NCBI GenBank assembly: GCA_963708175.1
Contig: CAVPSD010000006.1
Coordinates: 640,538-704,537 of the forward strand
Direction of reading: 5' to 3'
DNA: 64,000 nucleotides
Source of the DNA: an uncultured Acidimicrobiales bacterium
GTDB taxonomy: Bacteria > Actinomycetota > Acidimicrobiia > Acidimicrobiales > DATKAS01
The position numbers were made by a program, and so were the translations under genes. Shown here one piece after another: positions 501 through 52,637 of this stretch; position 1 is the stretch's first letter; each line of letters starts with the position of its first letter. The notes below the pieces were generated by a model. That model saw only the letters and a list, made by a program, of their open reading frames with translations, did not search any database and was not told the DNA's origin.

Positions 501-2045
<1,545 letters not shown>

Positions 2046-2088
2046 GACGCGCCGAAAGTAGGGTCGTCGGCACACGACCGGGGGACCG

Positions 2089-3219: not shown

Positions 3220-3271
3220 CGTTTGCCGCGGCGCCATCTCGCGTTCACCTCGACCGATCAGACTCGGCGAG

Positions 3272-9767: not shown

Positions 9768-9842
9768 GTGTGCCCGGCTTCCGACTCTCTGTCGCGAAGT
9801 GCGCCACTTCTGGCGCAGTTTGCGACACAGAGCCCGAGGGAC

Positions 9843-11244
9843 TCAGACAGAGGGGCGAGGGATCGGCCGGGTCGTCTCGTAGGCGCGAGCGGCACGCAGG
9901 ACGAGCGCGTCGGCGAACATCGGGCCGACGATCTGCATGCCGATCGGAAGGCCGTCAATGGTGAGACCGCATGGGATCGTGCACGCGGGTTGCTGGGTGA
10001 GGTTGAACGGATACGAGAACGGCGTCCAGCCGAGCATCGACTCGGGCGTCATGGGCGAGTGACCCGCGGGCCTCGCCTCGAACGCGGGCACGGCGACCGC
10101 CGGAGTGACGACGAGGTCGTAGCTCAGCATGAGCTGGCGCATCGTCGACCCGAGCTCGCCGCGCCGGAGCACGAGGCGTTGCACCTCGAGGTTGCTGAGC
10201 TCTGACCCGAGGCGAGCCTCGGCGGCGAAGTCGGGGTCGGTGACCTCCTGCTGCGCTGGGGTGAGCGTGTTCCACAACGTCCACGCTCCGGTGAACCACA
10301 AGCCGGTGGTGATCGGGAGCGGATCTTCGAACCCGGGATCCCGCTCCTCCACGCGCGCTCCCAGGGCCTCGAGCTGCTTGACGCCGGCGGCCACCGCGTC
10401 GGCGACCTCAGGATGCACCTTCGCATGGCCGAGCGTCGGCGAGTAGAGCACCCGGAGCCCGTCGATCCCGTCGTCGAGGCCATCGAGGTAGTCGGCCTCA
10501 TCGGGCGGCAGCGACGTCCAGTCGCGTGCGTCGGGCTGCTTGAGCACGTTCATCATCAGCGCCGCGTCGCGCACGCTCATGGTGTGCGGCCCGATGTGCG
10601 ACACCGTGCCGAACGGTGACAGCGGATGCGCGGGGACGCTGTCCGAAGCTCGGCTTCAGCCCGAAGTTTCCGCAGAACGCCGCAGGGATGCGCACCGACC
10701 CCGCGCCGTCACTGCCGATGCTCAGCGGCGCGAGGCCAGCGGCGACGGCGGCGGCAGTGCCACCGGACGAGCCGCCGCTTGTCTTGCTCGGGTCCCACGG
10801 ATTGCGCGTGATCCCCGTCATCGGCGAGTTGGTCTCGCCCTTGCAGCCGAACTCGGGAGTCGTGGTCTTGCCGACGAACACCGCGCCGGCCTCTCGCAGA
10901 CGCGCAACCGAGGGTGCATCGACATCCCAGGCCTGGTCGGGATCGACGGTGAAGCTTCCCCGTCGCGTGGGCCACCCGTGGGTCAGGAGCAGATCCTTGA
11001 TCGACGTGGGCACACCGTCGAGAGGACCCATCGGCTCGCCGCGCTGCCAACGCGCCTCACTCACACGAGCAGAAGCGAGCGCCGATTCCTCGTCGACGAG
11101 GCAGAACGCGTTGAGCGTCGGGTTGACGACCTCGATCCGCGCGAGCACGGCCCCGGTCACCTCGACCGGTGATGCCTGGCCCGTCCGGTAGAGATCGAGC
11201 AGCTCGGTTGCGCTGCGCTGGGTGAGATCAGAAGGGGTGCTCAC
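9843..11244 (-). pseudogene. amidase (amidase-signature family), frameshifted near 10640
   Basis: N-terminal part (ORF 10498..11394, GTG 11244) has GVPTSIKDLL, GGSSGGTAAAVAAG and GSDGAGSVRIPAAFCGNFGLKPSFG. The conserved continuation VPAHPLSPFGTVSHIGPHTMSVRDAAL is in another frame (ORF 9843..10604). Removing one base from ggaCAGcgt restores SFGRVP. Confidence 0.75.
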
Positions 11245-13043
11245 CAAAGGCGACGGCGCGACGCGAGGGCGAGGAGCCCGATGCCGCCGAGGACGCCCGC
11301 GATGCCGACCAGACCGAGCCCGGGCTGCGAGCCCGTGGCGGGCAGCGTCTCGCCGCCCGTCGTCGTGCTCGTCGTCGAGCCGCCGAGCTCGCACTGATCG
11401 GGCGCCGTGGTCGGCACGACCGTGGTGCCCGCCCCCGCAGCCGTCGTCGTCGTCACGATTGTCGTCGCCGTTGTCGTGGATGTGCCCGCGGTCGTCGACG
11501 TGGATGCCGTCGTCGACGTGGATGCCGTCGTCGACGTGGATGCCGTTGTCGACGTGGTGCTGCTCGTGGTCGTCGAGCTCGTGGTCGTCGAGCTCGTGGT
11601 CGTCGAGCTCGTGGTCGTCGTCGTGCTCTCAGTGCTCGACGTCGACGAACCGGAGGTCGTCGTGGTGGCGATCGTCGAGGACGGGCTCGTCGTGTTCACG
11701 ACGTTCACGAAGGTGACCGGCGGTGATGCCTGGAGCGGCTGCGGGCTCTCCGGTGGGCAGACGTCTGCCGCTTGCGTCGCCGAGAGCGCGCTGACTCCTC
11801 CAGGGCCCACCACATCGATCTTCTGGTTGTCGCCCGAGGACGACTCCTTCAGCTCGCATCGGGCTGGGACGGTGATCCCTGTGACCACGGTGCTCACTGC
11901 TCCGGTAGCGCCGGCAGGGATCACGAACGGCGGGATGGGCCCGTTCGGCTTGGAGCACACGATGTCGATCCGGATCTCACCTTGCTGCCCCGCGCCGTCA
12001 CCCTCGATCGACTTGACGACCGTCAAGTCCTGTGGACCGAAGAGCACCACTGTCTTGGTCACGTCGGTCACCGCGATGAGAGGGCCGGCCTGGATGATCG
12101 TCTGCGCGCCCAGGGTCGGTTGGTTCGTGGGCGGGATGAAGAGATAGACGGTGCCGCCGGGTTGCGACACCGTCGCCGTGACGGTGAGGGATATGGGTCC
12201 GGGCGAGTCGCCCTGCAACCAGACCTGTTGACCATCCGTGACCTCGAACGTGCTCCCGAGGCTCTGCGTGCCGTCTTCATCACCGAACGCATTCGCTCCC
12301 TCGCTGACGCGAGCGACCGCGGTCTGCCCGTTGGTGTGCACGACGAACGGCCCGACGACCGCGCTGACCCCGCCGGCCTTGGGCCCGTCGATCGTGACGT
12401 TCGGCGCCGGCGGAGCTGACAGTGGGCCGAGCTTGATGACGTTCGCGACGATCGCAGACACCGCGGAGTACAGCGGCGAAGTCGTCGACAAGACGTAGCC
12501 GTCGCTGAAGTACCAGATCGCGGCCTGCACCGCGGCGGCGCGTTGATTGGCGTCGAGGTTCGACGGCTCGTTCGTCGTCGGGAAGTACGACTGGAGCAAG
12601 CGAGCGACGTAGCCCACGTTCGGCACGTTCGCCTCGTTCCACTCTCCCGGCTTGTAGGGCCAGCCGACGTACGTCGGTGTGAGGAGGTCGATGCAGTAGC
12701 TGTCGAACTGGCTGCCCACGCCGGGACCCGAGGTCACCTCCATCCGAATCAGTCCCGCAAAGCCTTCGTCCTTCGCCGTCCATCCCTCCTGCGGGACGGT
12801 CGTCGGGTAGCCGACCAGTCGCGCTCCCTCCGTCAGCGTCGAGACATACCCCTGCACGCCTTGGCCAGCGCCCGTGTCGATGATCTTCACGGGCCCCGTC
12901 GTGAGTCCGCTGTCCTGTGGCGACGGGCTCGGCGGCGACGGCTGGACAGCGGCGTTCGCGAACGCGACCGAGGTCGCGAGGACCAACGTGGTCGCCACCC
13001 CCATCGCAGAGAGCACCGCGAGGAGTCTGCGGGGAGCGCGCAT
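11241..13043 (-). CDS. LPXTG-anchored surface protein with thioester (TQxA-type) adhesin domain and Thr/Ser-rich stalk
   Basis: Trimmed to ATG 13043. Signal peptide MRAPRRLLAVLSAMGVATTLVLATSVAFA. Cys in DSYCIDLL plus Gln in AAVQAAIWYF is a candidate Cys-Gln thioester pair. Ig-like middle region and T/S tandem-repeat stalk. C-terminal LPATG + hydrophobic helix + RRRLW. Confidence 0.75.
   Translation of the reverse strand: MRAPRRLLAVLSAMGVATTLVLATSVAFANAAVQPSPPSPSPQDSGLTTGPVKIIDTGAGQGVQGYVSTLTEGARLVGYPTTVPQEGWTAKDEGFAGLIRMEVTSGPGVGSQFDSYCIDLLTPTYVGWPYKPGEWNEANVPNVGYVARLLQSYFPTTNEPSNLDANQRAAAVQAAIWYFSDGYVLSTTSPLYSAVSAIVANVIKLGPLSAPPAPNVTIDGPKAGGVSAVVGPFVVHTNGQTAVARVSEGANAFGDEDGTQSLGSTFEVTDGQQVWLQGDSPGPISLTVTATVSQPGGTVYLFIPPTNQPTLGAQTIIQAGPLIAVTDVTKTVVLFGPQDLTVVKSIEGDGAGQQGEIRIDIVCSKPNGPIPPFVIPAGATGAVSTVVTGITVPARCELKESSSGDNQKIDVVGPGGVSALSATQAADVCPPESPQPLQASPPVTFVNVVNTTSPSSTIATTTTSGSSTSSTESTTTTTSSTTTSSTTTSSTTTSSTTSTTASTSTTASTSTTASTSTTAGTSTTTATTIVTTTTAAGAGTTVVPTTAPDQCELGGSTTSTTTGGETLPATGSQPGLGLVGIAGVLGGIGLLALASRRRLW
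11491..11622. repeat. in-frame tandem repeats inside the adhesin stalk (18-bp unit x ~4, then 15-bp unit x ~4)
   Basis: gtcgtcgacgtggatgcc at 11491, 11509 and 11527, with a degenerate copy at 11545. ctcgtggtcgtcgag at 11563, 11578 and 11593, with a partial copy at 11608. These encode TASTST / TTSST repeats on the minus strand. Confidence 0.85.
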
Positions 13044-36249: not shown

Positions 36250-36930
36250 ATGCACATCCCCGATGGATTCATCGACGGACCCACCTCTGTCGCGGGCGGT
36301 GCCGTCGCCATCACCGGTCTCGCGGTCTGCCTCCGGAAGGCGTCCGAGACGATGGAGGACAAGCAGGTCCCCCTTGCCGGCCTCACCGCCGCGTTCGTCT
36401 TCGCCGTCCAGATGCTCAACTTCCCCGTCGCCAGCGGCACGAGCGGACACCTGCTCGGAGGTGTGCTCGCCGCGGTCCTCGTCGGGCCGTGGGTCGGAAC
36501 CTTGTGCGTGTCGGTCGTGCTCACCGTGCAGTGCCTGCTTTTCGCCGACGGAGGCATCAGCGCGCTCGGCCTCAACATCATCAACATGGCGATGATCGGC
36601 GCGTTCGGCGGTTACGCCGCCTTCTTCCTCGTCAAGAAGGTCGTGGCGAAGACGAAGGGCGGTGTCACATTGGCGGCCGGCATCGCTGCCGGTTTCGCGC
36701 CCGTGCTCGCGGCCATCGCGTTCACCGTCGAGTACGCGATCGGCGGCAACGACGCCGCTTCGGTCGGCACCGTGGCGGCCGCGATGATCGGGGTGCACAT
36801 CCTGATCGGGATCGGAGAGGGCGTCATCACGGCGATGGCGGTCGGCTCGGTGCTGGCCGTCAGACCGGACCTCGTGTGGGGCGCGAAGGATCTGACGACA
36901 CGGGCGTCGATGGAAGTGGCAGTCGCATGA
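36250..36930 (+). CDS. cbiM: ECF-type cobalt/nickel transporter substrate-capture subunit CbiM
   Basis: ORF 36103..36930 trimmed to ATG 36250. The N-terminus MHIPDGF is the invariant metal-binding start of CbiM/NikM. Polytopic. Confidence 0.85.
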   Translation: MHIPDGFIDGPTSVAGGAVAITGLAVCLRKASETMEDKQVPLAGLTAAFVFAVQMLNFPVASGTSGHLLGGVLAAVLVGPWVGTLCVSVVLTVQCLLFADGGISALGLNIINMAMIGAFGGYAAFFLVKKVVAKTKGGVTLAAGIAAGFAPVLAAIAFTVEYAIGGNDAASVGTVAAAMIGVHILIGIGEGVITAMAVGSVLAVRPDLVWGAKDLTTRASMEVAVA

Positions 36931-37244
36931 AACGCCGCATCGCGGTGTTCGTCGCGGCCGGGCTCGTGGTGGCGCTCGGCCTCGCGTTCTTCGTGAGCCC
37001 GTACGCGAGCTCGCAGCCCGACGGCCTCAACAAGGTGGCTGCGGAGAAGGGATTCGACTCGAGCGCAAGAGATCACAGCCTCGACGACAGCCCCCTCGCG
37101 GGATACAGCGTCGAAGGCGTGGGCAACGGCAAGCTCAGCAAGGGCCTGTCCGGGATCATCGGAGTCGCGCTCACCTTCGCCGTCGGGTATGGCGTGCTGA
37201 CGCTCGTCCGGGTCTCACGCCGTCGGCGTGCTGTCACCACGTGA
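36927..37244 (+). CDS. PDGLE-domain protein (CbiN-equivalent small membrane subunit)
   Basis: ATGA overlap with cbiM. MKRRIAVFVAAGLVVALGLAFF...SSQPDGLNKV, plus a C-terminal TM helix. Confidence 0.7.
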   Translation: MKRRIAVFVAAGLVVALGLAFFVSPYASSQPDGLNKVAAEKGFDSSARDHSLDDSPLAGYSVEGVGNGKLSKGLSGIIGVALTFAVGYGVLTLVRVSRRRRAVTT

Positions 37245-37999
37245 GCGGCAACCACCACCTCTACGTCCCCGGCGCGTCGCCGATTCACCGGCTCGCGCCC
37301 CAGTGCAAGCTCGCGGCCGCCGTCCTGTACGTGCTCGCCATCGTCGCCACGCCCAGAGAGGCGTTCGGCGCGTTCGCGGCCTTTGCCGCCATCCTGGTTG
37401 TGCTGACCTTCGTCGCGCGGGTGCCGCTGACGTTCCTGCTGCGGCGGCTCGTGATCGAACTGCCCTTCCTCGCGTTCGCGCTGCTCCTGCCGGTCTTCGG
37501 GCAGGGCGAGCGCGTCGAAGTTCTCGGTGTGTCGCTCTCCGTTGCCGGCCTTTGGGGGATGTGGAACATCCTCGTGAAGGCGACGCTCGGTGTTGCGACA
37601 ACCGTCCTCATGGCGGCCACCACGCCGGTGCCCGACCTCTTGCACGGGCTCGAGCACCTGCGACTGCCCAAGGTCTTCGTCGGCATCTGTGGGTTCATGA
37701 TCCGCTACGCGGACGTGATCACGTCCGAGCTCCACCGCATGCGCGTCGCTCGCGTGTCCCGCGGCGCCGATCCGAGGTGGCTGTGGCAAGCGCGGGCGAC
37801 GGCGGCGTCGGCGGGCACGCTGTTCATCCGCTCGTACGAACGCGGTGAGCGCGTGTACCTCGCGATGGCGTCACGGGGCTACGCCGGATCGATGCCGATG
37901 GTCGAGGATCACGCCGCCCCTGCCGACCAGTGGGTCGTGACCCTCGCGCTCCCGTTCGTGGGTGCGCTGATCGCCACTGCTGCCTGGGTGGTGACGTGA
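37241..37999 (+). CDS. cbiQ: ECF transporter transmembrane (T) component CbiQ
   Basis: 252 aa. Overlaps the upstream stop. Arg-rich coupling helix region (ELHRMRVARVSRG) typical of CbiQ/EcfT. Confidence 0.75.
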   Translation: MSGNHHLYVPGASPIHRLAPQCKLAAAVLYVLAIVATPREAFGAFAAFAAILVVLTFVARVPLTFLLRRLVIELPFLAFALLLPVFGQGERVEVLGVSLSVAGLWGMWNILVKATLGVATTVLMAATTPVPDLLHGLEHLRLPKVFVGICGFMIRYADVITSELHRMRVARVSRGADPRWLWQARATAASAGTLFIRSYERGERVYLAMASRGYAGSMPMVEDHAAPADQWVVTLALPFVGALIATAAWVVT

Positions 38000-38739
38000 C
38001 GTTTCCCGCGCTCGAAGTACGGGGCGTGACCTTCGCCTACCCGGACGGGCATCAGGCGCTCTTCGGGGTCGACCTCAGCATCGGCGAGGGTGAGCGCGTC
38101 GCGCTGCTCGGGCCGAACGGCGCCGGCAAGACAACGCTCGTCCTCCACCTCAACGGGATCCTCGACGGAGGAGCCGGGGAGGTGCGCGTGGCGGGCATCC
38201 CGGTCACGAAGCCGAACCTCCACGAGATCCGCCAGCGCGTCGGCATCGTCTTCCAGGATCCCGACGATCAGCTGTTCATGCCGACCGTGCACGACGACGT
38301 CGCGTTCGGCCCGGCGAACTTCGGAGTCCGCGGGGCCGAGCTCGAGACGCGCGTGGACGAGGCGCTCACCGCAGTTGGCATGGAGGCGTTCGGGTCCCGG
38401 GCCCCGCATCACCTGAGCTTCGGGCAACGCCGCCGGGTGGCCGCGGCAACGGTGCTGGCAATGCATCCGAGCATCCTCGTGCTCGACGAGCCTTCGTCGA
38501 ACCTCGACCCCATGGCCCGCCGCGAGTTCGCGGACATCGTGAAGGGCCTCGGCCTCACCACGCTGATGGTCACCCACGATCTCCCCTACGCGCTCGAGCT
38601 GTGCCCCCGCGCGCTCGTGATGAACGACGGCCGCATCGTCGCCGACGGCACCACGCGCGAGGTGCTGGCAGACACGGAGCTGATGCGCGCCAACCGCCTC
38701 GAGCTGCCCTACGGGTTCGATCCCGCGTTCACCCGGTAG
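37996..38739 (+). CDS. cbiO: ECF transporter ATPase CbiO
   Basis: GTGA overlap (GTG 37996, VTFPALEV). Walker A GPNGAGKTT, signature LSFGQRRR, Walker B ILVLDEP. Confidence 0.85.
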   Translation: MTFPALEVRGVTFAYPDGHQALFGVDLSIGEGERVALLGPNGAGKTTLVLHLNGILDGGAGEVRVAGIPVTKPNLHEIRQRVGIVFQDPDDQLFMPTVHDDVAFGPANFGVRGAELETRVDEALTAVGMEAFGSRAPHHLSFGQRRRVAAATVLAMHPSILVLDEPSSNLDPMARREFADIVKGLGLTTLMVTHDLPYALELCPRALVMNDGRIVADGTTREVLADTELMRANRLELPYGFDPAFTR

Positions 38740-41713: not shown

Positions 41714-42772
41714 ATGACCGCAGTCGGCGGCGCGATCAGCTTGGTCGGCCTCGAGAAGCGATTCGGAGACCACCTCGCCGTCGACCACATCGACCTCGAC
41801 ATCCGCGGGGGCGAGTTCTTCTCGTTGCTCGGACCGTCGGGATGCGGGAAGACGACGACCCTGCGCATGATCGGAGGCTTCGAGCGACCGACATCGGGGC
41901 AGGTCTTGATCGACGGTGCGGACGTGAGCGGATCGCCGCCCGAACGCCGGCCCGTGAACACCGTCTTCCAGAGCTACGCGCTGTTCCCCCATCTCACCGT
42001 GCGCGACAACGTGGCATTCGGCCTCCGGTTCGGGGACGCCTCGAAAGACGACGCTCGCCGTCGCGTCGACGAGGTGCTCGCGACGGTGCGCCTCACGGGC
42101 TTCGACAAGCGCAAACCCCATCAGCTGTCGGGCGGACAGCAGCAGCGCGTCGCCCTCGCTCGCGCTCTGGTGCTGCGCCCACGAGTGCTGTTGCTCGACG
42201 AGCCGCTCGGCGCACTCGACGCGAAGCTTCGCAAGGCATTGCAGCTCGAGCTGGTCGCTCTGCAACGTGAGGTCGGCATCACGTTCGTCTACGTCACCCA
42301 CGACCAGGAAGAGGCGCTCACGATGAGCGACCGCCTCGCGGTCATGGACAGCGGCCGCATCGAGCAGTGCGGCACGCCTCGGGAGGTGTACGAGCAACCG
42401 TCGTCGGTGTACGTGGCCGACTTCCTCGGCGTCACGAACCTCATCCATGCGCACGGGCACGGCGACGGGCGCTGCACCATCGGCGAGCAGACGATCGTCG
42501 CCGGCGACGGGGCTCTTGACGTGAGCGGCCCAGTGCGGCTCATCGTGCGACCGGAACGCGTCAGCCTCGACGGAGAGTCGGGCAGCGCGCTCGCGGGTCG
42601 CGTCGAGCGCCTCGTCTACGTCGGCGCGACGACCCAGGTGATCGTGGGGCTGCCGACCGGTGACACCATGCAGGTGCTCGTGGCGAACGACGGCCGCCGC
42701 AGCCTTCCCCCCGAGGGCTCGACGGTGACCCTGCGCGTGCTCCCCGAAGCAGTCCGGGTGATCAGCGCCTGA
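41714..42772 (+). CDS. potA: polyamine-type ABC transporter ATP-binding protein
   Basis: Walker A GPSGCGKTT, FQSYALFPHLTVRDNVAFGL, LSGGQQQRVALARAL, LLLDEP, C-terminal TOBE-like domain. Confidence 0.8.
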   Translation: MTAVGGAISLVGLEKRFGDHLAVDHIDLDIRGGEFFSLLGPSGCGKTTTLRMIGGFERPTSGQVLIDGADVSGSPPERRPVNTVFQSYALFPHLTVRDNVAFGLRFGDASKDDARRRVDEVLATVRLTGFDKRKPHQLSGGQQQRVALARALVLRPRVLLLDEPLGALDAKLRKALQLELVALQREVGITFVYVTHDQEEALTMSDRLAVMDSGRIEQCGTPREVYEQPSSVYVADFLGVTNLIHAHGHGDGRCTIGEQTIVAGDGALDVSGPVRLIVRPERVSLDGESGSALAGRVERLVYVGATTQVIVGLPTGDTMQVLVANDGRRSLPPEGSTVTLRVLPEAVRVISA

Positions 42773-42779
42773 GCGCCGG

Positions 42780-42837
42780 GCGGGATTGTCGAGCGAAGCG
42801 AGCAGGAGCCAGCCGAAGCGAAGCGGAGGATGGCGAC
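42780..42837. repeat. intergenic 57-58-nt repeat, copy 1
   Basis: cgggattgtcgagcgaagcgagcaggagccagccgaagcgaagcggaggatggcgac, identical to copy 2. Lies between the convergent potA and potC stops. Confidence 0.9.
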
Positions 42838-42855
42838 CAGGGCTCAGCGCCAGTC

Positions 42856-42874
42856 GGCGGCGCACTGCGCCGCC
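42856..42874. terminator. GC hairpin centred between the twin repeats (possible bidirectional terminator)
   Basis: ggcggcgc-act-gcgccgcc: perfect 8-bp G/C stem with a 3-nt loop. No U-tract on either strand. Confidence 0.3.
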
Positions 42875-42887
42875 GGGCGGCGGACTC

Positions 42888-42945
42888 GCGGGATTGTCGA
42901 GCGAAGCGAGCAGGAGCCAGCCGAAGCGAAGCGGAGGATGGCGAC
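42888..42945. repeat. intergenic 57-58-nt repeat, copy 2
   Basis: Perfect direct copy of 42780..42837, 51-nt spacer, ends 15 nt before the potC stop. Confidence 0.9.
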
Positions 42946-42959
42946 GAGGAAGGCTGAGC

Positions 42960-43853
42960 TCACACGATTTCGAGGTCGGCGACGGTGCGCAGCGCGCTGG
43001 TCGACGCGTCTTCGTCACCCGAGCGGCGGCGCATGCCGCGCATCACGGTGAAGACCAGGATCAGCGCGCCCACGGTCGCGACGAGGATGCATGTGGCGAG
43101 CGCGTTGAGCGCCGGCGTGCTGCCGCCGCGGATCGATCCGTAGAGCTTGACCGGCACAGTCTCGGAGCTGGCGCCGTTCGAGAGAAATGCCGACACGACG
43201 AAGTCGTCGATCGAGGTCGCGAAGACGATCACGGCGCTGGCGATGACCGCCGGCGCGAGAAGTGGCAGCAAGATCAACCGAACGGCCTGCAATGGCGACG
43301 CACCCAGATCGCGGGCCGCCTGCTCGAGGTCAGGGCCGATGGTGAGCAACCGGCTCCGCGTGATGATCACCACATAGGAAAGCGAGAGCGTCACGTGGCC
43401 GATCAGCTGCGCAGGTCGCCCGAGGCTGATCGCGTCGAACAGGTTGGTGAACACCAGGAAGAGCGAGGTCCCGATCACGATCTCAGGCGTGACCAGTGGG
43501 ATCAGCATCCCGACTCGGGTGGCCCGCGCCGTCCGGGACCGCCAGCGCACCATGCCGACGGCGAGCGCGACACCGAGTGGAGTCGCAACGCAGATCGTGA
43601 GCGCGGCGAGGATCAACGAGTTCGTGAGGGCGTGGTGCAGGGTCGGGTCATTGCGCACCGACAGGTAGGGATCGGTCCAGTACCAGCGCAGCGAGAAGCC
43701 CTGCCAGACAGAGCGGCTGCGGCCGGAGTTGAACGAGAACAGCACTGCGACCGCTACGGGTGCGAGTGACCACACGACGTAGAGCCACGTGATGGCGACC
43801 AGTGCCCGCGGACGACCCCACGGGTTCGCGATCCACATGCGGAGCCGGCTCAT
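42960..43853 (-). CDS. potC: polyamine-type ABC transporter permease
   Basis: ORF 42960..44492 trimmed to ATG 43853 (MSRLRMWIANPW), with ATGA overlap with the upstream permease. EAA-type loop LEQAARDLGASPLQAVRLILLP. Confidence 0.75.
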   Translation of the reverse strand: MSRLRMWIANPWGRPRALVAITWLYVVWSLAPVAVAVLFSFNSGRSRSVWQGFSLRWYWTDPYLSVRNDPTLHHALTNSLILAALTICVATPLGVALAVGMVRWRSRTARATRVGMLIPLVTPEIVIGTSLFLVFTNLFDAISLGRPAQLIGHVTLSLSYVVIITRSRLLTIGPDLEQAARDLGASPLQAVRLILLPLLAPAVIASAVIVFATSIDDFVVSAFLSNGASSETVPVKLYGSIRGGSTPALNALATCILVATVGALILVFTVMRGMRRRSGDEDASTSALRTVADLEIV

Positions 43854-44773
43854 CGCTCGAGCTCCCGTTGCGCCCTGGCCGTCACCCAGACGTAGTACGC
43901 CATGAGCACGAGCAGCATCGCCGACAGGATGAGCACCAGCGACGCGCCCACCTGCTTCTGCGTCGAGTTCTGTATGTAGAAGGTGATCTGGTTGCCGATC
44001 ATCGAGGTCTTCGGCGACCGCGAGAGCAGGTCGGTCGTGTAGTAGTCGCCGAACATCGGCAACGCGACGATGACGGCCGCGGCGATGCACCCCTGCTTGC
44101 TGAGCGGCAGCGTGACGCGGAAGAACGCCGAACGCGCGGTCGCGCCGGCGTCGCGCGCGGCCTCGAGCAGCCGTGGATCGATGCGATCGAGACTGGCGTA
44201 GAGCGGAAGGATCAAGAACGGGATGTACCCGTACACGAGCCCGAGCACGACGGTGACGGGGTTCGCGTCGAGGAAGTTGCGGGGACCCCCGAAGATCGGG
44301 AACGCCTCGAGGAACCGGTTGACCCAACCGTCGGCACTCAGCAGGTTGACCCACGCGAGCATCCGCATGAGGTAGCTGACCCAGAAGGGCAGGACGAGCA
44401 ACGCCAACAGCAGCGCACGCCGTCGACCCGCGTGGCGTGCCAGGTAGTAGGCGACCGGGTACCCGATGAGGAAGCAGAGCGCGACCGCGCACGCGACATA
44501 GAGGATCGTGCGCTCGAACGGTGCCCGCAGATCACCGGTGAGGACGCGAGACAGGGTGTCGTTGAACGCGGTGAAGTCCCACTGCAGCGGGTTCCACTCG
44601 GGCTGCGCGGTGAGGAAGATCGGGTCGGTCGTGCCGAAAGCGACGCCGGCCACGGCGTAGAAGGGGATGAAGAAGAAGGCGAGCAGCCATGCCGTACCGG
44701 GAAGCGTGAAGCCTCCCCAGAGGAACCCGAGCTCGTTCGGCCGGGTCAGCCTCCGGCGTTGAACTTGCTCCAC
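43850..44773 (-). CDS. potB: polyamine-type ABC transporter permease
   Basis: 307 aa, GTG start. LEAARDAGATARSAFFRVTLP EAA loop. Six TM helices. Confidence 0.75.
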   Translation of the reverse strand: MEQVQRRRLTRPNELGFLWGGFTLPGTAWLLAFFFIPFYAVAGVAFGTTDPIFLTAQPEWNPLQWDFTAFNDTLSRVLTGDLRAPFERTILYVACAVALCFLIGYPVAYYLARHAGRRRALLLALLVLPFWVSYLMRMLAWVNLLSADGWVNRFLEAFPIFGGPRNFLDANPVTVVLGLVYGYIPFLILPLYASLDRIDPRLLEAARDAGATARSAFFRVTLPLSKQGCIAAAVIVALPMFGDYYTTDLLSRSPKTSMIGNQITFYIQNSTQKQVGASLVLILSAMLLVLMAYYVWVTARAQRELER

Positions 44774-45958
44774 GCGTCCTCGAGCTTGGCCTCGGTCTCA
44801 CGCGGCAGGGCGAGGATGAAGATGCCCTGGGCGAAGTCCTCGTCGGTCACCAACGTGTTCGTGAGGTTCTCGGGGATGATCTCGGCGGCGAGCACCTTGT
44901 CGGCCTCCATCCCCTGCACCACGCCCTGGTAGCCGGTGAACGCGAAGTTCGTGAGCGCGTTGTCGGTGTCCATCAGCATGTCGAGGAAGAGGTGCGCGAG
45001 CACCGGATGCTCCGCGTCCTTCAGGATCGCGCTCGAGGTCGGTGCCGACGACGGTGACGTCCTTCGCGGGGCGCCAGTAGCCGAGCACCGAAGGCTCCAC
45101 GCCGTCGGGCAGATAGCCCGTGGCGAGCACCATGTCGCCCGACCAGGCCTGGTTGATCTTCGCCTCGCCGGCAGGCAGCTTCTCGTAGGCGACGATGTCG
45201 ACCTTCACGTTCGAGTCGTCGACGAGACGCTGCAGCTCCGCGGCGGCCGACGCGAGGTCGTCGTCGCTGGGCGTGTTGATGTTCGTCTTACCCAGCTTGA
45301 GCATCGCCATCGCGAATGCGTCACGCGAGTCGTTGAGGATGCCGACCTCGCCCTTCCATTTCGGATCCCACAGTGCGTCCCATCCCTGCTGGTCCATCGT
45401 CGCCGGGTCGATCGCGTCGGTGCGGAAGCCGATGCCGGTGGTGAACACCGTGTAGGGGATTCCGTAGTGCAGCCCTTGGTCGAAGAACGGGTTCGCGGCA
45501 CTCGGCAGCAGGTTGCCGACGTTCGTGAGGTAGGTCTTGTTGAGCGGCTGGATGAGCTTCGCTCCGACGTACTTCGGCAGCTGGTCGATGCCGATCGACA
45601 GGATCAGGTCGACCTTCAGCGCGCCCGACGAGATCCTCGAGAGAAGCTCGGGGCCGTTTTCGTAGGTGGAGATGGAGACGTCGACGCCGTACTTCTCCTT
45701 GAATGCATCGACGAGCTCGGGCGAGACGAAGTCGGCGTAGTTCGCGATGTTGAGCGTGCCGCTCTCGGGGCTGAGGCCGTCGGCGATCGCCGGGTTGTCG
45801 TCGTAGATCGGCAGCGTGACGGGTTTGTCCGGGGTGGCGATCTGCGTAGCCACCTCGGTGTCGACGTTGGCACTCGAGTCGTCGCTGCCGCACGCAGCGA
45901 TCACCACGACGGCGGCTGCGGCACCGAGGAGCGTGCGACGGGAGAACGGCGCGGCCAT
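44746..45958 (-). pseudogene. potD: polyamine-type ABC transporter substrate-binding lipoprotein, frameshifted (extra base near 45034)
   Basis: Twin-Arg/lipobox N-terminus RRTLLGAAAAVVVIAACGS. ORF 44798..45958 reads to ..VTVVGTDL. The conserved SAILKDAEHPVLAHLFLDMLMDTDNAL...KFNAGG* continues in another frame (ORF 44746..45003). The junction is gac ctc G agc gcg. Confidence 0.75.
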
Positions 45959-46042
45959 GATCGAGCGAGCCTAGGGGCCGGAACAGACCTGTCGGGCGGC
46001 GGGAGCGAAAGCTGAACGACGAGTCAGGACTACGCTCTGCCC

Positions 46043-47670
46043 ATGGCAGAGCTCGCCGATGCGATCGTGATCGGCGGCGGGCACAACGGCCTCGTCGCCG
46101 CCGGCTTCCTCGCCAAGGCCGGGCTGCGCCCGATCGTGCTCGAAGCCCGCGACGGTCATCGGTGGCGCAGCCATCACCGAGCAGCCGTGGGGGCCCGACT
46201 TCAAGGTCACCGCGCTGTCATACGTCATGAGCCTGATGCCGCGACGCGATCATCGACGGGCCTCGACCTCGAGCGGCACGGCTACAAGGTGTACCCGATG
46301 GGCCCGTCGTACTCGCCGCTGCCCGACGGGCGGCGCCGTGCACATGAGCGAGGACCCTGCGGACCGCTTCGAGTCGGTCGCCAAGTTCTCCAAGCGCGAC
46401 GCCGAAGCGCTGCTCGAGTACGACGCCTGGCTCGAGGGCATCGCCGAGGTGCTCGGACCGCTGCTCACCGCGGTGCCGCCGAAGCTCGGCTCGAAGCGGC
46501 CGCGCGACCTCGTCGACCAGCTGCGGACTGGCGTGGCGGCTGCAGGGTCTCGACGTGCGCACCGCGGCCGACGTCGACGCGGCTGTTCACGATGTCGATC
46601 GCGCGACCTGCTGCGCGAGTGGTTCGAGACGCGACGCGGTGCAGGCGATGATGGCGGTCAACGGCATCATCGGCACGTGGGCCGGGCCCGAGGAACCGGG
46701 CACGGCATACGTGATGCTCCACCACTCGATCGGTGACGTCGGCGCCGGGCCGACCTCGAGGCGTGGGGCTACCCGCACGGCGGCATGGGCGCGGTGAGCG
46801 ACGCGATCCGCCGCGCGCCGAGTCGCTTCGGCGCGACGGTGCGCACGAGCGCCCCGGTCGAGCGGGTGCTCGTGCGCAACGGCGGGTCGTACGGCGTGGC
46901 CCTCGCCGACGGCGACGAGATCGACACCGACCTGGTCGTCACTGCGATCCACCCGCAGATCCGCTTCCTCCGCCACCTCGACGCCAGCGAGCTGCCCGAC
47001 GACTTCGTGCGCCGCATCCGCAACTGGCAAGACCGCAGCGGCACCGTGAAGGTGAACCTCGCGCTGTCGCGAGCTGCCCGACTTCTCGTCGCGATCCCGG
47101 CTCACACCAGCAGCCGCACCACACCGGCGCGATCGAGCTGGCCCATCGCTCGACTACCTCGAGCACGCGTTCCAAGCAGGCGGTGAGCGGCGCGCCAGCG
47201 ACCCGCCCGTTCAGCGACGGCTGCATCCCCTCGACGTGATCGCACGATCTGTCCCGCCGGGCACGCACGTGATGAGCCTCTTCACGCAGTGGGTGCCGCA
47301 GACGTGGAGCGACGAGCCGCACCCGCGACGAGCTCGAGGCGTACGCCGATCGGGTGATCGACGGCTACGACGAGCTGGCGCCCAACTTCCGACGTCGATC
47401 ATCCACCGCCAGGTGATCGGGCCGTACGAGATGGAGCACACCTACGGCCTCATCGGCGGCAACATCTTCCACGGCGAGCTCAGCGTCGACCAGCTGTTCC
47501 ACAACCGCCCGGCGCCGGGGTACGCCGACTTCCGCCCCCCGATCGCCGGCCTCTACCAGGCGCACTCGGCCACGCACGGCGGTGGCGGCGTCACCGGCAT
47601 CCCCGGCTGGCAGGCCGCGCGGGCCGCACTCGCCGATCAGCGGGCCGCGCGGTGGAGAATCAAGCGATGA
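46043..47670 (+). pseudogene. CrtI/phytoene-desaturase-like FAD-dependent oxidoreductase, multiply frameshifted (copy 1)
   Basis: Starts DAIVIGGGHNGLVAAGFLAKAG (Rossmann GxGxxG). Conserved segments alternate between all three frames more than ten times. Ends ..GGGVTGIPGWQAARAALADQ..*. ATGA overlap with the next gene. Confidence 0.75.
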
Positions 47671-48874
47671 CGACGCGGCGGCCCGCCCCCATCGACCCGG
47701 CGGCGCTCGACCGCGTGCTCGCGCCGTTCGGCCACAGCCACATGCTGCCGCGGGAGGCCTACGTCGACGAGGCCGTGCTCGCGTGGGAGCGCGAGGCACT
47801 TCTTCGAGGGTGGATGGGTGTGCGCGGCCGCGTCACGGACCTGCCCGAGCCCGGCAGACCAGCGCGCACTGTCGGCCGGCGGCGCCGGGCGTGCTGCTCA
47901 CGCGTGACCGCGACGGCGTGCTCCACGCCTTCGCCAACGTCTGCCGCCACCGCGGCCACGAGCTGCTCCCGTGCGCGGGGCGACAGTCGTCAACACGAGT
48001 GTCGTCGACAAGGCTGTCGTGCAGTGCCCGTACCACGCGTGGAGCTACGAGCTCGACGGCCGCCTGCGCCTCGCGCCACGGTTCGACGGCGGACGAACTT
48101 CGATCCGTCGAGCGGTCGCGCTGCTGCCGGTCCGGTCACGCCGAGTGGGGCGGCTGGCTGTTCGTGAACGTGTCCGGCGACGCCGCCGGCCCTTCGACGA
48201 GCACCTCGGCGTCTCTCGCCGGCGCAGCTCGCGAACTGGGAGTGCGAGCGCCTGGTCGTCGCCGCCACCCATCACTACGAGCTCGCCGGCGAACTGGAAG
48301 ATCGCGGTCGAGAACTACCACGAGTGCTACCACTGCCCGCTCATCCACCCCGAGCTGCGCGGGTGTCGCCCGCCCGACGTCGGGCGACAACTCGACGAGG
48401 GCCCGGCGCGTGGGTCGGCGGCACGATGGACCTGCGCCGACTGCGCGTCGACGATGTCGCTCAACGGCGAGTCGGGCGGAGTGGCGCTGCCGCGGGCTCG
48501 ACCGCCGAGCAGCGGCGCCAGGTGCTCTACCTCAAGGTGTTCCCGAACCTGCTGGTCAGCCTGCACCCCGACTACGTGATGACCCATCGGATCGAGCCGG
48601 TGTCCGCCGGCGCGCACGACGGTCGAGTGCCAGTGGCTCTTCGCGCCCGAGGCCGCGAGCGTCCCGACTTCGACCCACCTACGCCGTCGACTTCTGGGAC
48701 CTCACGAACCGCCAGGACTGGGCCGCGGTCGAGTCGGTGCAGCGGGGACTTTCGCATCCCTCGTTCGTGCCGGGCGTGCTTGCGGAGCAGGAGAGCGACG
48801 TCTACCGCTTCGTCACGATGGTGGCGCGCGGCTACCGCTGCGAGCCGATCAGGGGCGGAGCGGTACCGCGCTGA
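47667..48874 (+). pseudogene. Rieske [2Fe-2S] oxygenase alpha subunit (choline-monooxygenase-like C-domain), multiply frameshifted (copy 1)
   Basis: Rieske motifs CRHRGHEL and CPYHAWSY are found in different frames. WKIAVENYHECYHCPLIHPEL and the C-terminal DFWDLTNRQDWAAVESVQRG are in yet other frames. Confidence 0.7.
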
Positions 48875-49448
48875 CGCCGAGCAGCGACGCGGTGGCGCGG
48901 CGCGCCTGTCCGAGCGACGCCGCACGCCGGCTCGAGGTCAGCGCGACCTGCACGCCGAGGCCGTCGATCAACGCAGCGATCACCGCGGCCATCTCGGCTG
49001 CGTCGCCTTCACTGAACACACCGCTGTCCATGCCCTCCTGGACGACGGCTTCGAGGACGGCACGCCAGCGGTCGTCCAGCTGACGCCACGTACGCCGCAG
49101 CACGGGCGAGCGCAGCGCCTCCCCCCACGAGTCGATCCACATCGCCCACGACGCGCGTGTGCTCGGTCCGACGCCGGCGACGAGGAGCGCGTCGATGCGA
49201 TCGACGGGCGACGAGGGTGAGTCCGCGATCGCGTCGAGGTCGTCGAGCTCGTTTCGTGAGGCGAACGCGAACGCCTCGGCGAGCAGCGCGTCCTTGGACC
49301 CGAAGTGGTACACGACGAGCGGCGGCGAGATGCCCAGCCGGTGGGCGACGTCGCTCATGCGGGTGTTGGCGAAACCCCGCTCGCGCAGCACCTCACACGT
49401 GGCCCCGAGGATCTCCTCGCGCCGAGCCTCCCCCTTCGGCCGCGGCAT
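48849..49448 (-). CDS. TetR-family transcriptional regulator
   Basis: ORF trimmed to ATG 49448 ([49 protein letters not shown] is the TetR HTH). 1-nt TGATG overlap with the upstream accessory gene. Confidence 0.85.
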   Translation of the reverse strand: MPRPKGEARREEILGATCEVLRERGFANTRMSDVAHRLGISPPLVVYHFGSKDALLAEAFAFASRNELDDLDAIADSPSSPVDRIDALLVAGVGPSTRASWAMWIDSWGEALRSPVLRRTWRQLDDRWRAVLEAVVQEGMDSGVFSEGDAAEMAAVIAALIDGLGVQVALTSSRRAASLGQARRATASLLGVSAVPLRP

Positions 49449-49696
49449 CAGGCGGCCGTGACCCCGTCGGCCGCAAGCATGTCCTCGAGCGCGTGCACCC
49501 ACGCCTCGTAGTAGGGCATGTCATCCGGATGGGCGGCGATTGCCGCGATGAGATGCGGGCGGAAGTGCTCCCACGCCTGGCCGGTGCTGTCGAGGTAGGC
49601 GGCCACCATCCCGAACGCCCGGCTCTCCCAGGGTGCCCCGAACACGAGCTCACCGTTCTTGCGCGGCACCTCGCTCGGGAGGTCGCCCTTGGTCAC
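49448..49696 (-). CDS. nitrile hydratase accessory (activator) protein
   Basis: GTG 49696 overlaps the alpha-subunit stop (GTGA). [37 protein letters not shown] matches the NHase accessory-protein family. 82 aa. Confidence 0.7.
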
Positions 49697-50308
49697 CGGA
49701 CCACGCCGATCATGTGGTCTCGCGTGACGAGAGTCGGCGAGCTCGTCCTCCGACCGGCCGTCGACGGCGTCGGGCACGAGCGGCAGGACGAGGTAGCGGA
49801 TCTCGGCGCTCGAATCCCACACCCGCAGCTCGACGTCGTCGTCGAGAGTCGTCCCGAACTCTGCCAGGACCGCACGGGGTTCGCGCACGACTCGCGACCG
49901 ATACTCGGGGCTCTTGTACCAGCGCGGCGGGAGGCCCAGCACGGGCCACGGGTAGCACGAGCACAGCGTGCAAACGACGACGTTGTGGACGGTGGGCGTG
50001 TTCTCGAGGGCGACGATGTGCTCACCCTCGGCGCCGCCGAAGCCGAGCTCTGCGATCGCCGCTGTCGCGTCGTCGAGCAGGCGCTCGCGGTACGCGGGGT
50101 CGACCCAGGCGCGGGCGACGACCTTGGCACCGTTCATCGGCCCGAGGTCGTGCTCGTAGGCCTCGACGACCGCATCGATCGCGTCACTGGTGACGAGACC
50201 GCGTTCGACGAGGAGCGACTCGATGGCGGCGACGCGGTTCTCGACGTCCGTGAGCGGCGCGGGGTGGTGCCCATGGTCGTGATCGTGGTCGCCGTGCTCG
50301 TCGCTCAT
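49693..50308 (-). pseudogene. nthA: cobalt-type nitrile hydratase alpha subunit, frameshifted near the 3' end (extra base at about 49732)
   Basis: Metal claw [10 protein letters not shown] (CTLCSC is the Co type). The His-rich N-terminus is [15 protein letters not shown]. After ..SEDELAD the conserved [12 protein letters not shown] is in the +1 frame, so the ORF track shows an alpha::accessory fusion (49448..50326). Confidence 0.8.
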
Positions 50309-50943
50309 TCGAGGTAGGTCTCCCACAGGTCGATGTACAGCGTGCCCGGTTCGGCATCGGCGCCCCAGAGATCGTGCATTGCGAAGGCAACGGTGTAGAG
50401 CGCCTCGGGCTCACCCTCGCCCATGGTGTGCGGCAGCGGCCACCCGCCGTGCATGGCGACGACCGTGCCGGTGACGCCGCGGACATAGCGCGGGCACCGG
50501 TGATGGTGCGCGGGAGCCATCCTCCGGACGGTCACGCGCTGACCGCTCGCGAACCGCGGGCTGACGCTCGCGACGGGGTCGTCGCGTGGGGAGGTCAGCG
50601 CGCGCACGAGCCCCGCGGCACGATCAGGGTTGGCGGTGGGCGCGACCTCGACGGGCCGTTCGATGCGGTCGTCGATGTCGGCGACCGCGAGAGTGCCCGC
50701 CGCGACGAGACCTCGCTCGAGCGAGAACGCCCAACGCTCGAAGTAGCTCGCCGCGAGGTACGCCGCCGGCGGCATCGCCTCGATGTTCGGGCGCACCCCT
50801 CCGGCCCGGAGCCCGGCGGTGTTCATCATGAGGGCGAACGTGCGACCCTCCCACCGCTCGCGGAACACCGGTTCGTCGTCCTCGAGGAGGGCAGCGACCG
50901 ACCCGAACCCGTGCATCCCACCCATGTCGTGGGCTCCATCCAC
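50305..50943 (-). CDS. nthB: nitrile hydratase beta subunit
   Basis: ORF 50305..51117 trimmed to GTG 50943 ([14 protein letters not shown], the canonical beta N-terminus). ATGA overlap with alpha. Confidence 0.85.
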
Positions 50944-51004: not shown

Positions 51005-52637
51005 ATGGCCACGATCGCCGAACAGCTCGGCGAGATCGGGTTGCCGGAACCGATCAGTGCGCTCGCCGCACGGGAGTGGGACGCAGTGGTCGTCGGCGGC
51101 GGCCACAACGGACTCACGTGCGCGGCCTACCTCGCCCGAGGCCGGCAAGCGCGTGCTGGTGCTCGAGCGGCGCGAGCGGCTCGGCGGCGCGTGCACGCTC
51201 GAGCGACCGTTCCCCGACAGCCGCTACGTCGTCAGCCCGTGCGCGTACGTCGTCGGCCTGCTCGACCAGGTCGTGATCGACGAGCTCGACCTCGCGCCGC
51301 CGCGGGCTCGAGGTCTTCGTGGCCGATCCGAACCTCTGGGCGCCGTTCCCCGACGGCGACGTCGTTCGCGCAGTGGAACGACGACGCGAAGACGCAGGCG
51401 AGCCTCGACGCGCTCGGCCTCTCGCGCGCACGACATCGAGGGCTACTGGGCCTACGAGCAGGTCTTCGACGAGATGCGCCAGCGCCTGCGCACCCGCGGC
51501 CGCGACAGCCTGGATCGGCGAGTCGCCCACGCGCGACGAGCTCGAGGCGATGCTCGGCCACGACCAGTGGATGATCGACATCCTGTTCGACGCGTCGATC
51601 GCCGAGGTGCTCGACCACTACATCGACGATCAGCGCCTGAAGGACGCGCTGTACGGCCAGGGCGTGATCGGCGCGTACGCCGGCCCGCGCGACTGGGGCA
51701 CGGCGTCGGTCAAGCTGATGCACTACCAGGGCGACCTCGGCGGGCAGGGCCCGGTGTGGGGCTACGTCAAGGGCGGGATGGGGGTGATCAGCTTCGCCAT
51801 CGCCGAGGCCGCGGTGGAGGCCGGCGCGGTGCTGGCCTGCGGCGTCGAGGTGGCCGAGATCGTCCCGGGCGAGGGCGTCCGCCTGGAGGGCGGCGAGCTG
51901 ATCCGAGCGTCGCACCGTCGTCTGCAACGCCGACCCGAAGCGGGCGCTGACGATGCTCGGCGCTCCGGGACGCGGTGCCGGCCGCGTACCGGTCGCCGCC
52001 TCGAGGACGTGGCAGGTCCGCAGCCCGGTCGTGAAGTTCAACGCCGCGCTCACCCGCCTGCCGACCGTTCCCGGCCGCCGACGGCGCGACGTGGCCGTAT
52101 CACGTCGATGATCTCGGTGACCCACGGGCTCGACGCCGCGCAAGCAGGCGTTCGAGGACTGCCGGCCGGCCGCGCCAACGTCGGCTACGGCGAGGTGTAC
52201 TTCCAGACCGGCTACGACCCGACGCCCGCGCCCGAAGGGCCGGCACCTGATGAGCGTGTTCGGGCAGTACGCGCCGTACACGCTGCCGACGGCTCGACGT
52301 GGGACGACACGCGCGACGGCGTCGCGCGGCAGTTCGTCGACCTGATCGGCGACGTTCGCGCCCGACATCGAGGACTGCATCGAGCACTGCGAGGTGCTCG
52401 GCCGCCCCGGACATCGAGGCGCGCGTCGGGCTCACCGGCGGGCACATCTTCCAGGGCGAGACGATGCCCGACCAGATGTGGGAGCACCGCCTCACGGCGC
52501 GCACGCCGATCCCCGGCTTCTACTTCTGCGGCGCCGCGACCCATCCCGCCGGCTCGGTCATCGCGCTCAACGGCCGCAATGCGGCCATGGCCCTGCTCGT
52601 GGACGACCTACCAAAGGGAGTCGGCGAGCGCGCGTAG
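51005..52637 (+). pseudogene. CrtI/phytoene-desaturase-like FAD-dependent oxidoreductase, multiply frameshifted (copy 2)
   Basis: WDAVVVGGGHNGLTCAAYLA at the N-terminus. Later conserved blocks (DQWMIDILFDASIAEVLDHYIDDQRLKDALYGQGVIGAYAGP.., ..TGGHIFQGETMPDQMW..FYFCGAATHPAGSVIALNGRNAA) lie in different frames. Confidence 0.7.

Follow-up and report, generated by a model that had tools for sequence, protein, structure and literature searches.

Does this locus encode a nitrile hydratase (NHase) alpha subunit covalently joined to its own metallochaperone, or does a single surplus base make two ordinary genes look like one? The question arises in a 64,000 nt stretch of a contig from an uncultured Acidimicrobiales bacterium (hereafter the window; genome GC content is 69%), for which a first-pass annotation had described a minus-strand NHase operon in the order beta, alpha, 82-aa accessory protein and TetR regulator, linked by ATGA, GTGA and TGATG overlaps. 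It had also offered two readings of the open reading frame (ORF) spanning alpha and the accessory gene: an error in an ordinary, complete cassette, which we favour, or a real covalent alpha-chaperone fusion, which proved to be unconserved. Inspection of the sequence and profile searches both bear out the gene order and the overlaps (Table 1), and the locus is an ordinary, complete Co-type NHase cassette of beta, alpha, a small beta-like accessory protein and TetR. Co-NHases are alpha2beta2 enzymes that hydrate nitriles to amides, and the same function would be expected here.

Table 1. Coordinates of the NHase cassette and of neighbouring features in the window.
Feature	Position	Strand	Remarks
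CbiM / PDGLE / CbiQ / CbiO-type ECF cobalt-uptake genes	36250..38733	+	intact; same syntenic neighbourhood
Rieske oxygenase gene	47667..48868	+	16 private frame-breaking indels by strict count (~19 by looser count), concentrated at 47.79-48.67 kb
TetR-family regulator, BetI-type C-terminal domain	48849..49448	-	199 aa; PF00440 + PF13977; syntenic with L001 TetR
NHase accessory gene (activator / self-subunit-swapping chaperone type)	49448..49696	-	82 aa; PF21006
Displaced alpha C-terminus, 12 residues + TGA stop	49693..49731	-	frame differs from that of the main part of alpha
Frameshift site, stretch G-A-C-T holding one extra base	49732..49735	-	neither homopolymer nor slippery site
NHase alpha subunit, in-frame part	49736..50308	-	residues 1 to ~191/192; VCTLCSCY Co-type metal site; HD-rich N-terminal tail
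NHase beta subunit	50305..50943	-	GTG 50943 to TGA 50305; 212 aa; intact; PF21006 + PF02211
FAD-dependent oxidoreductase gene	51005..52613	+	15 private frame-breaking indels by strict count (~16 by looser count), nearly all +1 insertions

The four genes are tightly packed, with the alpha start (ATG 50308-50306) overlapping the beta stop (ATGA), the accessory start (GTG 49696) overlapping the alpha TGA (GTGA) and the TetR start (ATG 49448) overlapping the accessory stop (TGATG). The beta subunit is collinear with that of the relative L001 over positions 1-212 in a single frame (82% identity). It exceeds the curated cutoff of TIGR03888 in a profile search (174 bits vs 152), and the presence of this partner next to alpha supports the assignment of the latter as an NHase alpha subunit. 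The accessory protein matches PF21006 (beta N-terminal-like) with 43 bits against a cutoff of 21.5, and scores 44.7 bits against TIGR03889, for which the cutoff is 46. Its gene lies directly 3' of the Co-type alpha and is found in all close relatives. Cobalt insertion and Cys oxidation of Co-NHase have been reported to proceed via an alpha-accessory complex by self-subunit swapping (PMC7193024). The ECF cobalt-uptake genes encode proteins with 80-89% identity to those of L001, each in one frame by tblastn, and contain the Pfam domains PDGLE, CbiQ and ABC_tran. The earlier statement that no amidase is adjacent holds within ±10 kb of the cassette; a frame-broken amidase-signature gene is located 38 kb away, at ~9.84-11.39 kb. 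Neither Rfam families nor tRNA genes were found when the window was scanned for them.

The NHase claw reads C-T-L-C-S-C-Y, in which Thr and Tyr are typical of Co-type and Ser and Thr of Fe-type enzymes. The first-pass annotation had called alpha Co-type based on its CTLCSC claw, and this assignment stands: the metal-site segment is identical to that of Co-type PDB chains, and among solved structures Co-type chains score 281-296 bits as against ~213 bits for Fe-type chains. The N-terminus is rich in His and Asp. As written, the sequence contains no complete alpha chain ending in LVTRD.MIGV in one frame; such a chain is present after deletion of one base. The chain repaired in this way covers positions 2-183 of 184 of PF02979 (292 bits) and the fused ORF positions 2-173 (269 bits), both against a cutoff of 27. 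In its repaired form the sequence scores 297 bits against TIGR01323 (cutoff 250). As the first-pass annotation had suggested, we aligned alpha to characterised Co-type chains, and the repaired version matches 2dpp, 1v29, 3qxe and 1ire end to end.

The distance from the alpha ATG at 50308 to its TGA at 49693 is 616 nt, or 3n+1, and alignment to seven relatives identifies a 1-nt insertion that is private to the window. The claim that one extra base at about 49732 displaces the alpha C-terminus is thus confirmed, and can be refined in that the base is not uniquely assignable within the stretch G-A-C-T (49735-49732): removal of the T gives ELAD-LVTRD, and removal of the G gives ELAT-LVTRD, the form present in the closest homologues. 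A frame tracker based on composition alone, using no homologues, placed the frame switch at 49731. The accessory gene shares its frame with the N-terminal part of alpha, resulting in a single ORF (49448..50326, minus strand) of 292 aa from an upstream GTG or 286 aa from the ATG. The latter form is made up of 192 residues from alpha, 12 read out of frame and 82 from the accessory protein, exactly as counted in the first-pass annotation, and the 12-residue linker is the alpha tail read out of frame. No in-frame junction of complete domains was found in the fused ORF, in which alpha is without 12 conserved residues. No difference from 13 orthologues was seen in the alpha tail, in its TGA stop or in the accessory start that overlaps it. 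That an alpha::accessory ORF appears at all is due to the GTGA overlap, because a +1 insertion anywhere close to the alpha stop shifts reading into the frame of the accessory gene.

Orthologous loci mostly have an unbroken alpha gene. The closest homologues share 88-91% identity and are 203-212 aa long, intact orthologous alpha subunits range from ~193 to 216 aa overall, and in ~195 related loci alpha is intact in one frame. Alpha and accessory are separate in those relatives whose gene calls were seen, including L001, in which they are called as genes of 208 and 83 aa (tblastn identity of the accessory 81%). Natural fusion had been predicted to show as orthologues fused in the same way without the LVTRD motif in the other frame, and none was found. 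Frame-broken alpha genes occur in 5 of 34 MFD long-read metagenome-assembled genomes (MAGs), in none of 43 other genomes and in 1 of 78 JGI contigs, an excess in long-read MAGs with a Fisher p of ~4e-4 if the JGI contig L122 is not counted as broken. Each of the broken copies has its indel at a different position and in a different context, and the independent shifts show some concentration in the final ~27 codons. In L122, a short-read-type contig, the same alpha tail is put out of frame by a deletion of 2 nt. An exact DNA pattern with the extra base made optional had 0 matches in metagenome contigs, a protein-based scan for conspecific sequence reached 91% identity at best with none conspecific, and exact look-ups of the fused ORF (from both starts), of beta and of the intact neighbour PhyH returned no identical entry.

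The genes flanking the cassette are heavily disrupted. In the ~19 kb of the window alignable to relatives we counted 68 private frame-breaking (non-3n) indels, 58 of which are insertions and 10 deletions; 50 of the insertions are of 1 nt, and 10 of these 50 extend a neighbouring base. Their density is 9-18 per kb in three patches (47.79-48.67, 51.0-52.6 and 56.43-58.75 kb) and 0-0.4 per kb elsewhere. On both sides, the dense patches begin ~1.1-1.4 kb from the alpha site, which lies between and not inside them, the alpha insertion being the sole private frame-breaking indel in the 2.1 kb of the four cassette genes. The homologue-free frame tracker detected 61 frameshift-like switches, 50 of them in 46-59 kb and 1 in 12-40 kb, when run with a loose switch penalty; a stiff penalty merged the dense patches into "non-coding" sequence. 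Private indels dominated by insertions in the same way also occur in relatives, but in other genes, with +1 insertions accounting for 12 of 14 and 13 of 17 in L007, and L059 has 18 private indels in the same block.

Bacterial pseudogenes are known for a deletion bias, opposite to the excess of insertions found here. After removal of the indels, the Rieske oxygenase gene has 391 codons, no stops and a dN/dS of 0.16-0.18, and the FAD-dependent oxidoreductase gene 533 codons, no stops and a dN/dS of 0.19-0.21, compared to 0.12-0.18 for divergent pairs of relatives; the corrected products of both genes share 81-84% amino acid identity with relatives. The flanking genes are not decayed pseudogenes because they are stop-free with normal dN/dS once the indels are removed, and we rejected decay on this basis together with the ratio of insertions to deletions, a test which is powerless for alpha itself with only 12 codons downstream of the shift. 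The idea that the insertions represent both alleles of a wobble-site SNP placed side by side found no support, as their distribution over the junctions between codon positions 3 and 1, 2 and 3, and 1 and 2 is 12:7:8, that is, random. The patchy, insertion-dominated indels around the cassette are not evolutionary.

We conclude, with a probability of roughly 0.87, that the alpha::accessory fusion is an artefact in which a long-read consensus error has added one base to an ordinary Co-NHase cassette. The alpha insertion probably belongs to the same error class as the neighbouring indels. The closest relatives of the window are MAGs of the MFD-LR catalogue, which were obtained from Nanopore data only by Flye assembly with one round of Medaka (PMC12313526), and going by these relatives the window is likely to have been assembled in a similar way. 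The surplus base at 49732-49735 most likely arose as a consensus error when long (Nanopore-type) metagenomic reads were assembled; in the organism, alpha would most likely be a normal 204-aa protein with the conserved 12-residue tail, and translational coupling would allow the accessory protein to start at its own GTG as a separate product.

A real and recent frameshift, which would deprive alpha of its 12 C-terminal residues and extend it into the 286-aa alpha::accessory chimera, appears unlikely. Under that reading the NHase would most likely be inactivated, its gene being either a pseudogene at an early stage or a minor strain variant caught in the consensus. The base is after all present in the sequence and outside the dense indel patches, the 2-nt deletion in the L122 tail suggests that such lesions may arise naturally, and every bacterial genome contains some frameshifted genes at low frequency; moreover, a very recent mutation would look identical to an error because only 12 codons lie downstream. 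However, the insertion is of the same class (+1, non-homopolymer) as ~50 nearby non-evolutionary insertions, long-read MAGs show a strong excess of broken alpha genes, and there is no downstream decay, with tail, stop and overlap all intact. The intact tail and stop also bear on a functional natural fusion, in which alpha would have evolved covalently tethered to its own metallochaperone, since they would not be preserved out of frame if the fusion were under selection. We regard this reading as very improbable, and non-conservation has already refuted it in large part: set against the intact one-frame alpha genes of related loci are a few broken ones, each different. Tethering after alpha is tolerated in principle, as indicated by an active engineered beta-alpha-P14K version of the P. 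putida Co-NHase (PMC4709657), but engineered versions keep a complete alpha, whereas here 12 residues that are invariant in 13 orthologues become an out-of-frame linker. Further fused ORFs do exist in databases, namely P0001, P0038 and the sole in-frame fusion found, P0083, a singleton from the SRR6266849 assembly; yet P0001 and P0038 come from loci rich in split genes, their shifts are at sites other than that of the window, both keep an intact alpha tail out of frame, and P0038 has a second shift within the accessory gene.

Programmed +1 ribosomal frameshifting or transcriptional slippage, by which one mRNA would give normal alpha as well as an alpha-accessory fusion, would be permitted by the GTGA frame relation and might account for the loose clustering of independent shifts towards the alpha end. 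It is nevertheless the least credible of the explanations considered, as GCC GAC T CTC contains no slippery codon pair, homopolymer run, stop or hungry codon, the extra base is found in no orthologue, and the other broken copies differ in position and context. Equally hard to credit as the natural fusion is its most specific form, namely a genuine extra base and a 286-aa alpha(1-192)::linker::accessory protein that is produced and functions as a cis-tethered metallochaperone, maturing the NHase without free activator. If it were true, the recurrent +1 shifts close to the 3' end of alpha in the related genomes L002, L003 and L052 and the in-frame P0083 would represent repeated evolution of tethering. 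A real fusion would provide a natural experiment on cobalt delivery, self-subunit swapping versus a cis-acting chaperone, and would mean that alpha tolerates the loss of its conserved C-terminus. Under the consensus-error reading, the cassette adds only one more Co-type NHase sequence from soil Acidimicrobiales, and the value of the case is cautionary: the window and related public MAGs hold many such errors, and at GTGA or ATGA gene junctions in long-read-only metagenomes a +1 error late in the first gene of the pair can create a plausible-looking "fusion protein".

The cassette resembles known Co-NHase operons (P. putida NRRL-18668 with P14K, R. rhodochrous J1 L-NHase with NhlE, Pseudonocardia thermophila and Geobacillus/Bacillus) in its order beta-alpha-activator (PMC7193024), its VCTLCSCY site and its small beta-subunit-like activator, here also with a cobalt ECF transporter nearby. 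It differs from them in an alpha gene split over two frames by one base, an HD-rich alpha N-terminal tail of variable length, a BetI-type TetR, no amidase within ±10 kb and an uncultured Acidimicrobiales host. As in the engineered P. putida (beta-alpha)-P14K (Xia et al., 2016, PMC4709657), the activator follows straight after the alpha C-terminus in one polypeptide. Unlike the ORF in the window, the engineered protein includes beta, alpha and P14K in full and has demonstrated activity (PMC4709657), whereas the predicted ORF is without the last 12 residues of alpha, has an out-of-frame linker and leaves beta separate. Eukaryotic fused NHases of the Monosiga brevicollis type are likewise single polypeptides with a His-rich segment (PMC7193024), but join beta to alpha and are conserved across eukaryotic lineages, while the apparent fusion in the window joins alpha to the accessory protein, is confined to this one sequence and is unconserved. 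The closest parallel to the private, insertion-dominated frame-breaking indels in conserved genes is provided by errors in the Nanopore MAGs of MFD-LR, a catalogue whose authors inspected it for Nanopore-associated errors (PMC12313526). Those errors were tied to long homopolymers, low GC and lower coverage (PMC12313526), whereas the sequence here has 69% GC and 10 of its 50 single-base insertions extend a neighbouring base.

Four tightly coupled genes on the minus strand (48849-50943) make up the nitrile hydratase (NHase) cassette. The alpha gene measures 616 nt (3n+1) between its ATG and the TGA at 49693 inclusive, and its frame runs through ...RSEDELAD and 12 out-of-frame residues directly into the 82-aa gene, because the GTG of the latter, in the GTGA overlap, shares that frame. 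The ORF so formed is listed at 292 aa (286 aa counted from the ATG), and the 192 + 12 + 82 residues computed in the first-pass annotation are exact; its description of a cassette of overlapping genes with a frameshifted alpha fused to the accessory gene is confirmed. The conserved 12-residue alpha tail can be read in the neighbouring frame (49731..49693), and a composition-only frame tracker also calls the switch at 49731. The extra base is any one of G-A-C-T at 49735-49732: deleting T gives ELAD-LVTRD, and deleting G gives ELAT-LVTRD, the form in the closest homologues. Downstream, the 12 codons, the stop and the overlapping start are all perfectly preserved, and we saw nothing able to promote recoding at the site.

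Features of the window and its frame-breaking indels (length not a multiple of three) absent from aligned relatives
Feature	Position	Strand	Detail
NHase beta	GTG 50943 to TGA 50305	-	212 aa
NHase alpha	start ATG 50308	-	ATGA overlap with beta stop
82-aa gene	GTG 49696 to TGA 49448	-	GTGA overlap with alpha stop
TetR	ATG 49448, end 48849	-	199 aa; TGATG overlap
CbiM/PDGLE/CbiQ/CbiO ECF-type cobalt uptake cluster	36250-38733	+	intact; conserved neighbourhood of NHase
Amidase-signature gene (PF01425)	9843-11394	-	split into two ORFs
Rieske oxygenase	47.79-48.67 kb		18 private indels per kb
FAD oxidoreductase	51.0-52.6 kb (51005-52613)		9 private indels per kb
HxlR and molybdopterin oxidoreductase	56.43-58.75 kb		14 private indels per kb
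Clean	33.9-41.3 kb		0.1 private indels per kb; one 8-nt insertion at 33925
Clean	52.6-54.7 kb		0 private indels per kb
Clean	58.8-60.2 kb		0 private indels per kb
Four cassette genes	48.68-50.94 kb		0.4 private indels per kb; alpha base only

In profile searches beta matches PF21006 and PF02211 (TIGR03888, 174 bits; cutoff 152), and the repaired alpha covers positions 2-183 of the 184 in PF02979 (292 bits; TIGR01323, 297 bits, cutoff 250), as against positions 2-173 only (269 bits) for the fused ORF. The 82-aa protein matches PF21006 (beta N-terminal-like) and scores 44.7 bits with TIGR03889 'nitrile hydratase accessory protein', slightly below the cutoff of 46, while the regulator combines TetR_N with a BetI-type C-terminal domain. 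Among solved structures, the best matches to alpha are without exception cobalt-type enzymes (4ob1, 2dpp, 1v29, 3qxe and 1ire; 238-296 bits), the ten highest reaching 280-296 bits versus ~213 bits for iron-type chains; the 13-residue metal-site segment is identical to that of cobalt-type chains, and alignments to the solved chains extend through LVTRD.MIGV. Once repaired, the cassette belongs by sequence to the family of Co-type NHases, its putative activator being of the self-subunit-swapping type, and it should work as they do. The nearby cobalt uptake cluster fits a cobalt-dependent enzyme; on the 1.5-Mb contig L001, from an Acidimicrobiales MAG, only ~5 kb separate it from the cassette.

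In alpha, the His/Asp-rich N-terminal tail (50263-50308) differs in length among the close relatives P0002, P0006, P0012 and P0016 through in-frame repeat gain and loss, and is lost in P0020; it may plausibly be connected with metal binding. The sole amidase candidate found in the window, 38 kb from the cassette, carries a GGSSGG motif and is frame-broken too (10498-11394 covers PF01425 positions 1-185, and 9843-10604 covers 187-445). A ~5.9-kb segment (41750-47640), shared with the related loci L077 and L005 and absent from L001, L006 and L007, encodes an ABC importer (ATPase with TOBE domain, two permeases and solute-binding protein) and a FAD oxidoreductase paralogue, itself frame-broken.

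The alpha subunits retrieved with the fused ORF are 193-216 aa long, and those nearest to it share 88-91% identity and end in the conserved 12-residue tail; in L001, where the neighbourhood is the same, alpha and the accessory protein (208 and 83 aa) are called as two separate genes. Among the 80 loci of a genome scan the closest all come from MFD Acidimicrobiales MAGs; none of these is the genome of the window itself, the highest DNA identity being ~83%. The MFD MAGs are Nanopore-only Flye assemblies with one Medaka polishing round (PMC12313526). Two related proteins, P0001 and P0038, are also alpha::accessory ORFs, with linkers consisting of the alpha tail read out of frame; their shifts begin at different residues, P0038 has a second shift within the accessory gene, and split genes abound at their loci (L002, L003). 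Across all loci, these two and L052, L059, L077, L080 and L082 have a frame-broken alpha, and all are MFD long-read assemblies. By source, it is broken in 5/34 MFD MAGs and 0/43 other genomes of the genome scan, and in one of 78 JGI metagenome contigs (L122).

In L122 (Ga0075431_100033765, non-MFD) a 2-nt deletion at ~3540-3560 lies within LVT/RDHMIGVVR. Of ~10 independent frameshifts in alpha across all loci, six lie within the final ~27 of its 204 codons. This mild clustering may partly be an artefact of how loci were found; a GC-rich context prone to errors, or a higher tolerance of lesions near the 3' end, could also account for it. In P0083 (SRC, SRR6266849_1989869), a singleton 280-aa protein known from protein sequence alone, alpha stops at ...TEAEL and the accessory protein continues in frame (DLPRRNGEVAFDAPW...) with no LVTRD tail at all; no other candidate for a true in-frame fusion of alpha and accessory protein was found.

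Comparison of L001 proteins with the window (tblastn) found many genes collinear and intact, and both cassette-flanking genes in several frames. Base-level alignment of ~19 kb with up to seven relatives identified 68 strictly window-private, frame-breaking indels, 58 insertions (50 single-base) versus 10 deletions; just 10 of those 50 repeat the base next to them. Insertions make up ~85% of the patch indels; most add one base outside any homopolymer, and the genes that they interrupt are otherwise well conserved. A homologue-free tracker called 61 frameshift-like switches, of which 46-59 kb holds 50, 8.4-11.7 kb seven and 12-40 kb only one; further patches lie at ~46000-47350 and 8400-11700, with long clean stretches between patches. 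The patches may stem from locally low coverage, from a mixture of strains or from cross-mapping of relatives. The molybdopterin oxidoreductase gene heavily broken at 56.5-58.8 kb is also split in L001, the 'intact' reference, into three called genes (1446-3683).

With private indels removed, the FAD oxidoreductase (533 codons) and Rieske (391 codons) genes have no internal stop, 81-84% identity to relatives and dN/dS of 0.16-0.21; divergent relative pairs give 0.12-0.18 for the same genes, and clean neighbouring genes are comparable. At least 15 real indels per gene should bring many stops and a large nonsynonymous excess, and bacterial pseudogenes show a deletion bias, opposite to the 6:1 insertion excess. 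Given the lack of stops, the low dN/dS and the insertion excess, the flanking-gene indels are not evolutionary. An origin of the insertions from two alleles written side by side finds no support, as their codon positions are random (12:7:8). Insertion-dominated private indels also occur in relatives, but in different genes (PMT_2 and Cbi genes in L007; the L059 copies of FAD oxidoreductase, beta and alpha in L059), and the pattern tracks assembly, not gene.

We consider the extra alpha base most likely a consensus error (probability about 0.87), because, as a +1 insertion outside any homopolymer, it belongs to the dominant class of the ~50 demonstrably artefactual events, because the sequence downstream is intact and because no feature promotes recoding. 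The sequencing technology of the window is judged here from its relatives. The weak point of the error reading is that the insertion stands isolated between patches, inside none, the nearest artefactual insertions beginning ~1.1-1.4 kb to either side; this position favours a real, recent inactivating mutation, which the shared class and the preserved downstream sequence nonetheless make unlikely. Very unlikely, even taken jointly, are a programmed frameshift, for which the site offers no recoding feature and the alpha-breaking events, compared at base level across loci, have each their own position and context with no common site, and a functional fusion, which has an active engineered precedent for an activator placed after alpha (PMC4709657) but would lose 12 conserved alpha residues. 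All broken alphas keep an intact tail and stop out of frame; orthologues sharing a fused frame free of any LVTRD remnant, which the first-pass annotation took as the mark of a natural fusion, were not found. The interpretation in the first-pass annotation is thus upheld in part: of its two alternatives, the indel context favours error over natural fusion, and the alpha::accessory fusion is almost certainly not a real feature.

The engineered precedent, a beta-alpha-P14K fusion of P. putida, retains a complete alpha and therefore does not rescue a reading in which 12 residues are lost. Natural eukaryotic NHase fusions join beta to alpha rather than alpha to activator (PMC7193024), unlike the window ORF. 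What underlies the apparent fusion is a Co-type NHase cassette of the ordinary kind, with the same beta-alpha-activator order as the usual Co-type arrangement (PMC7193024).
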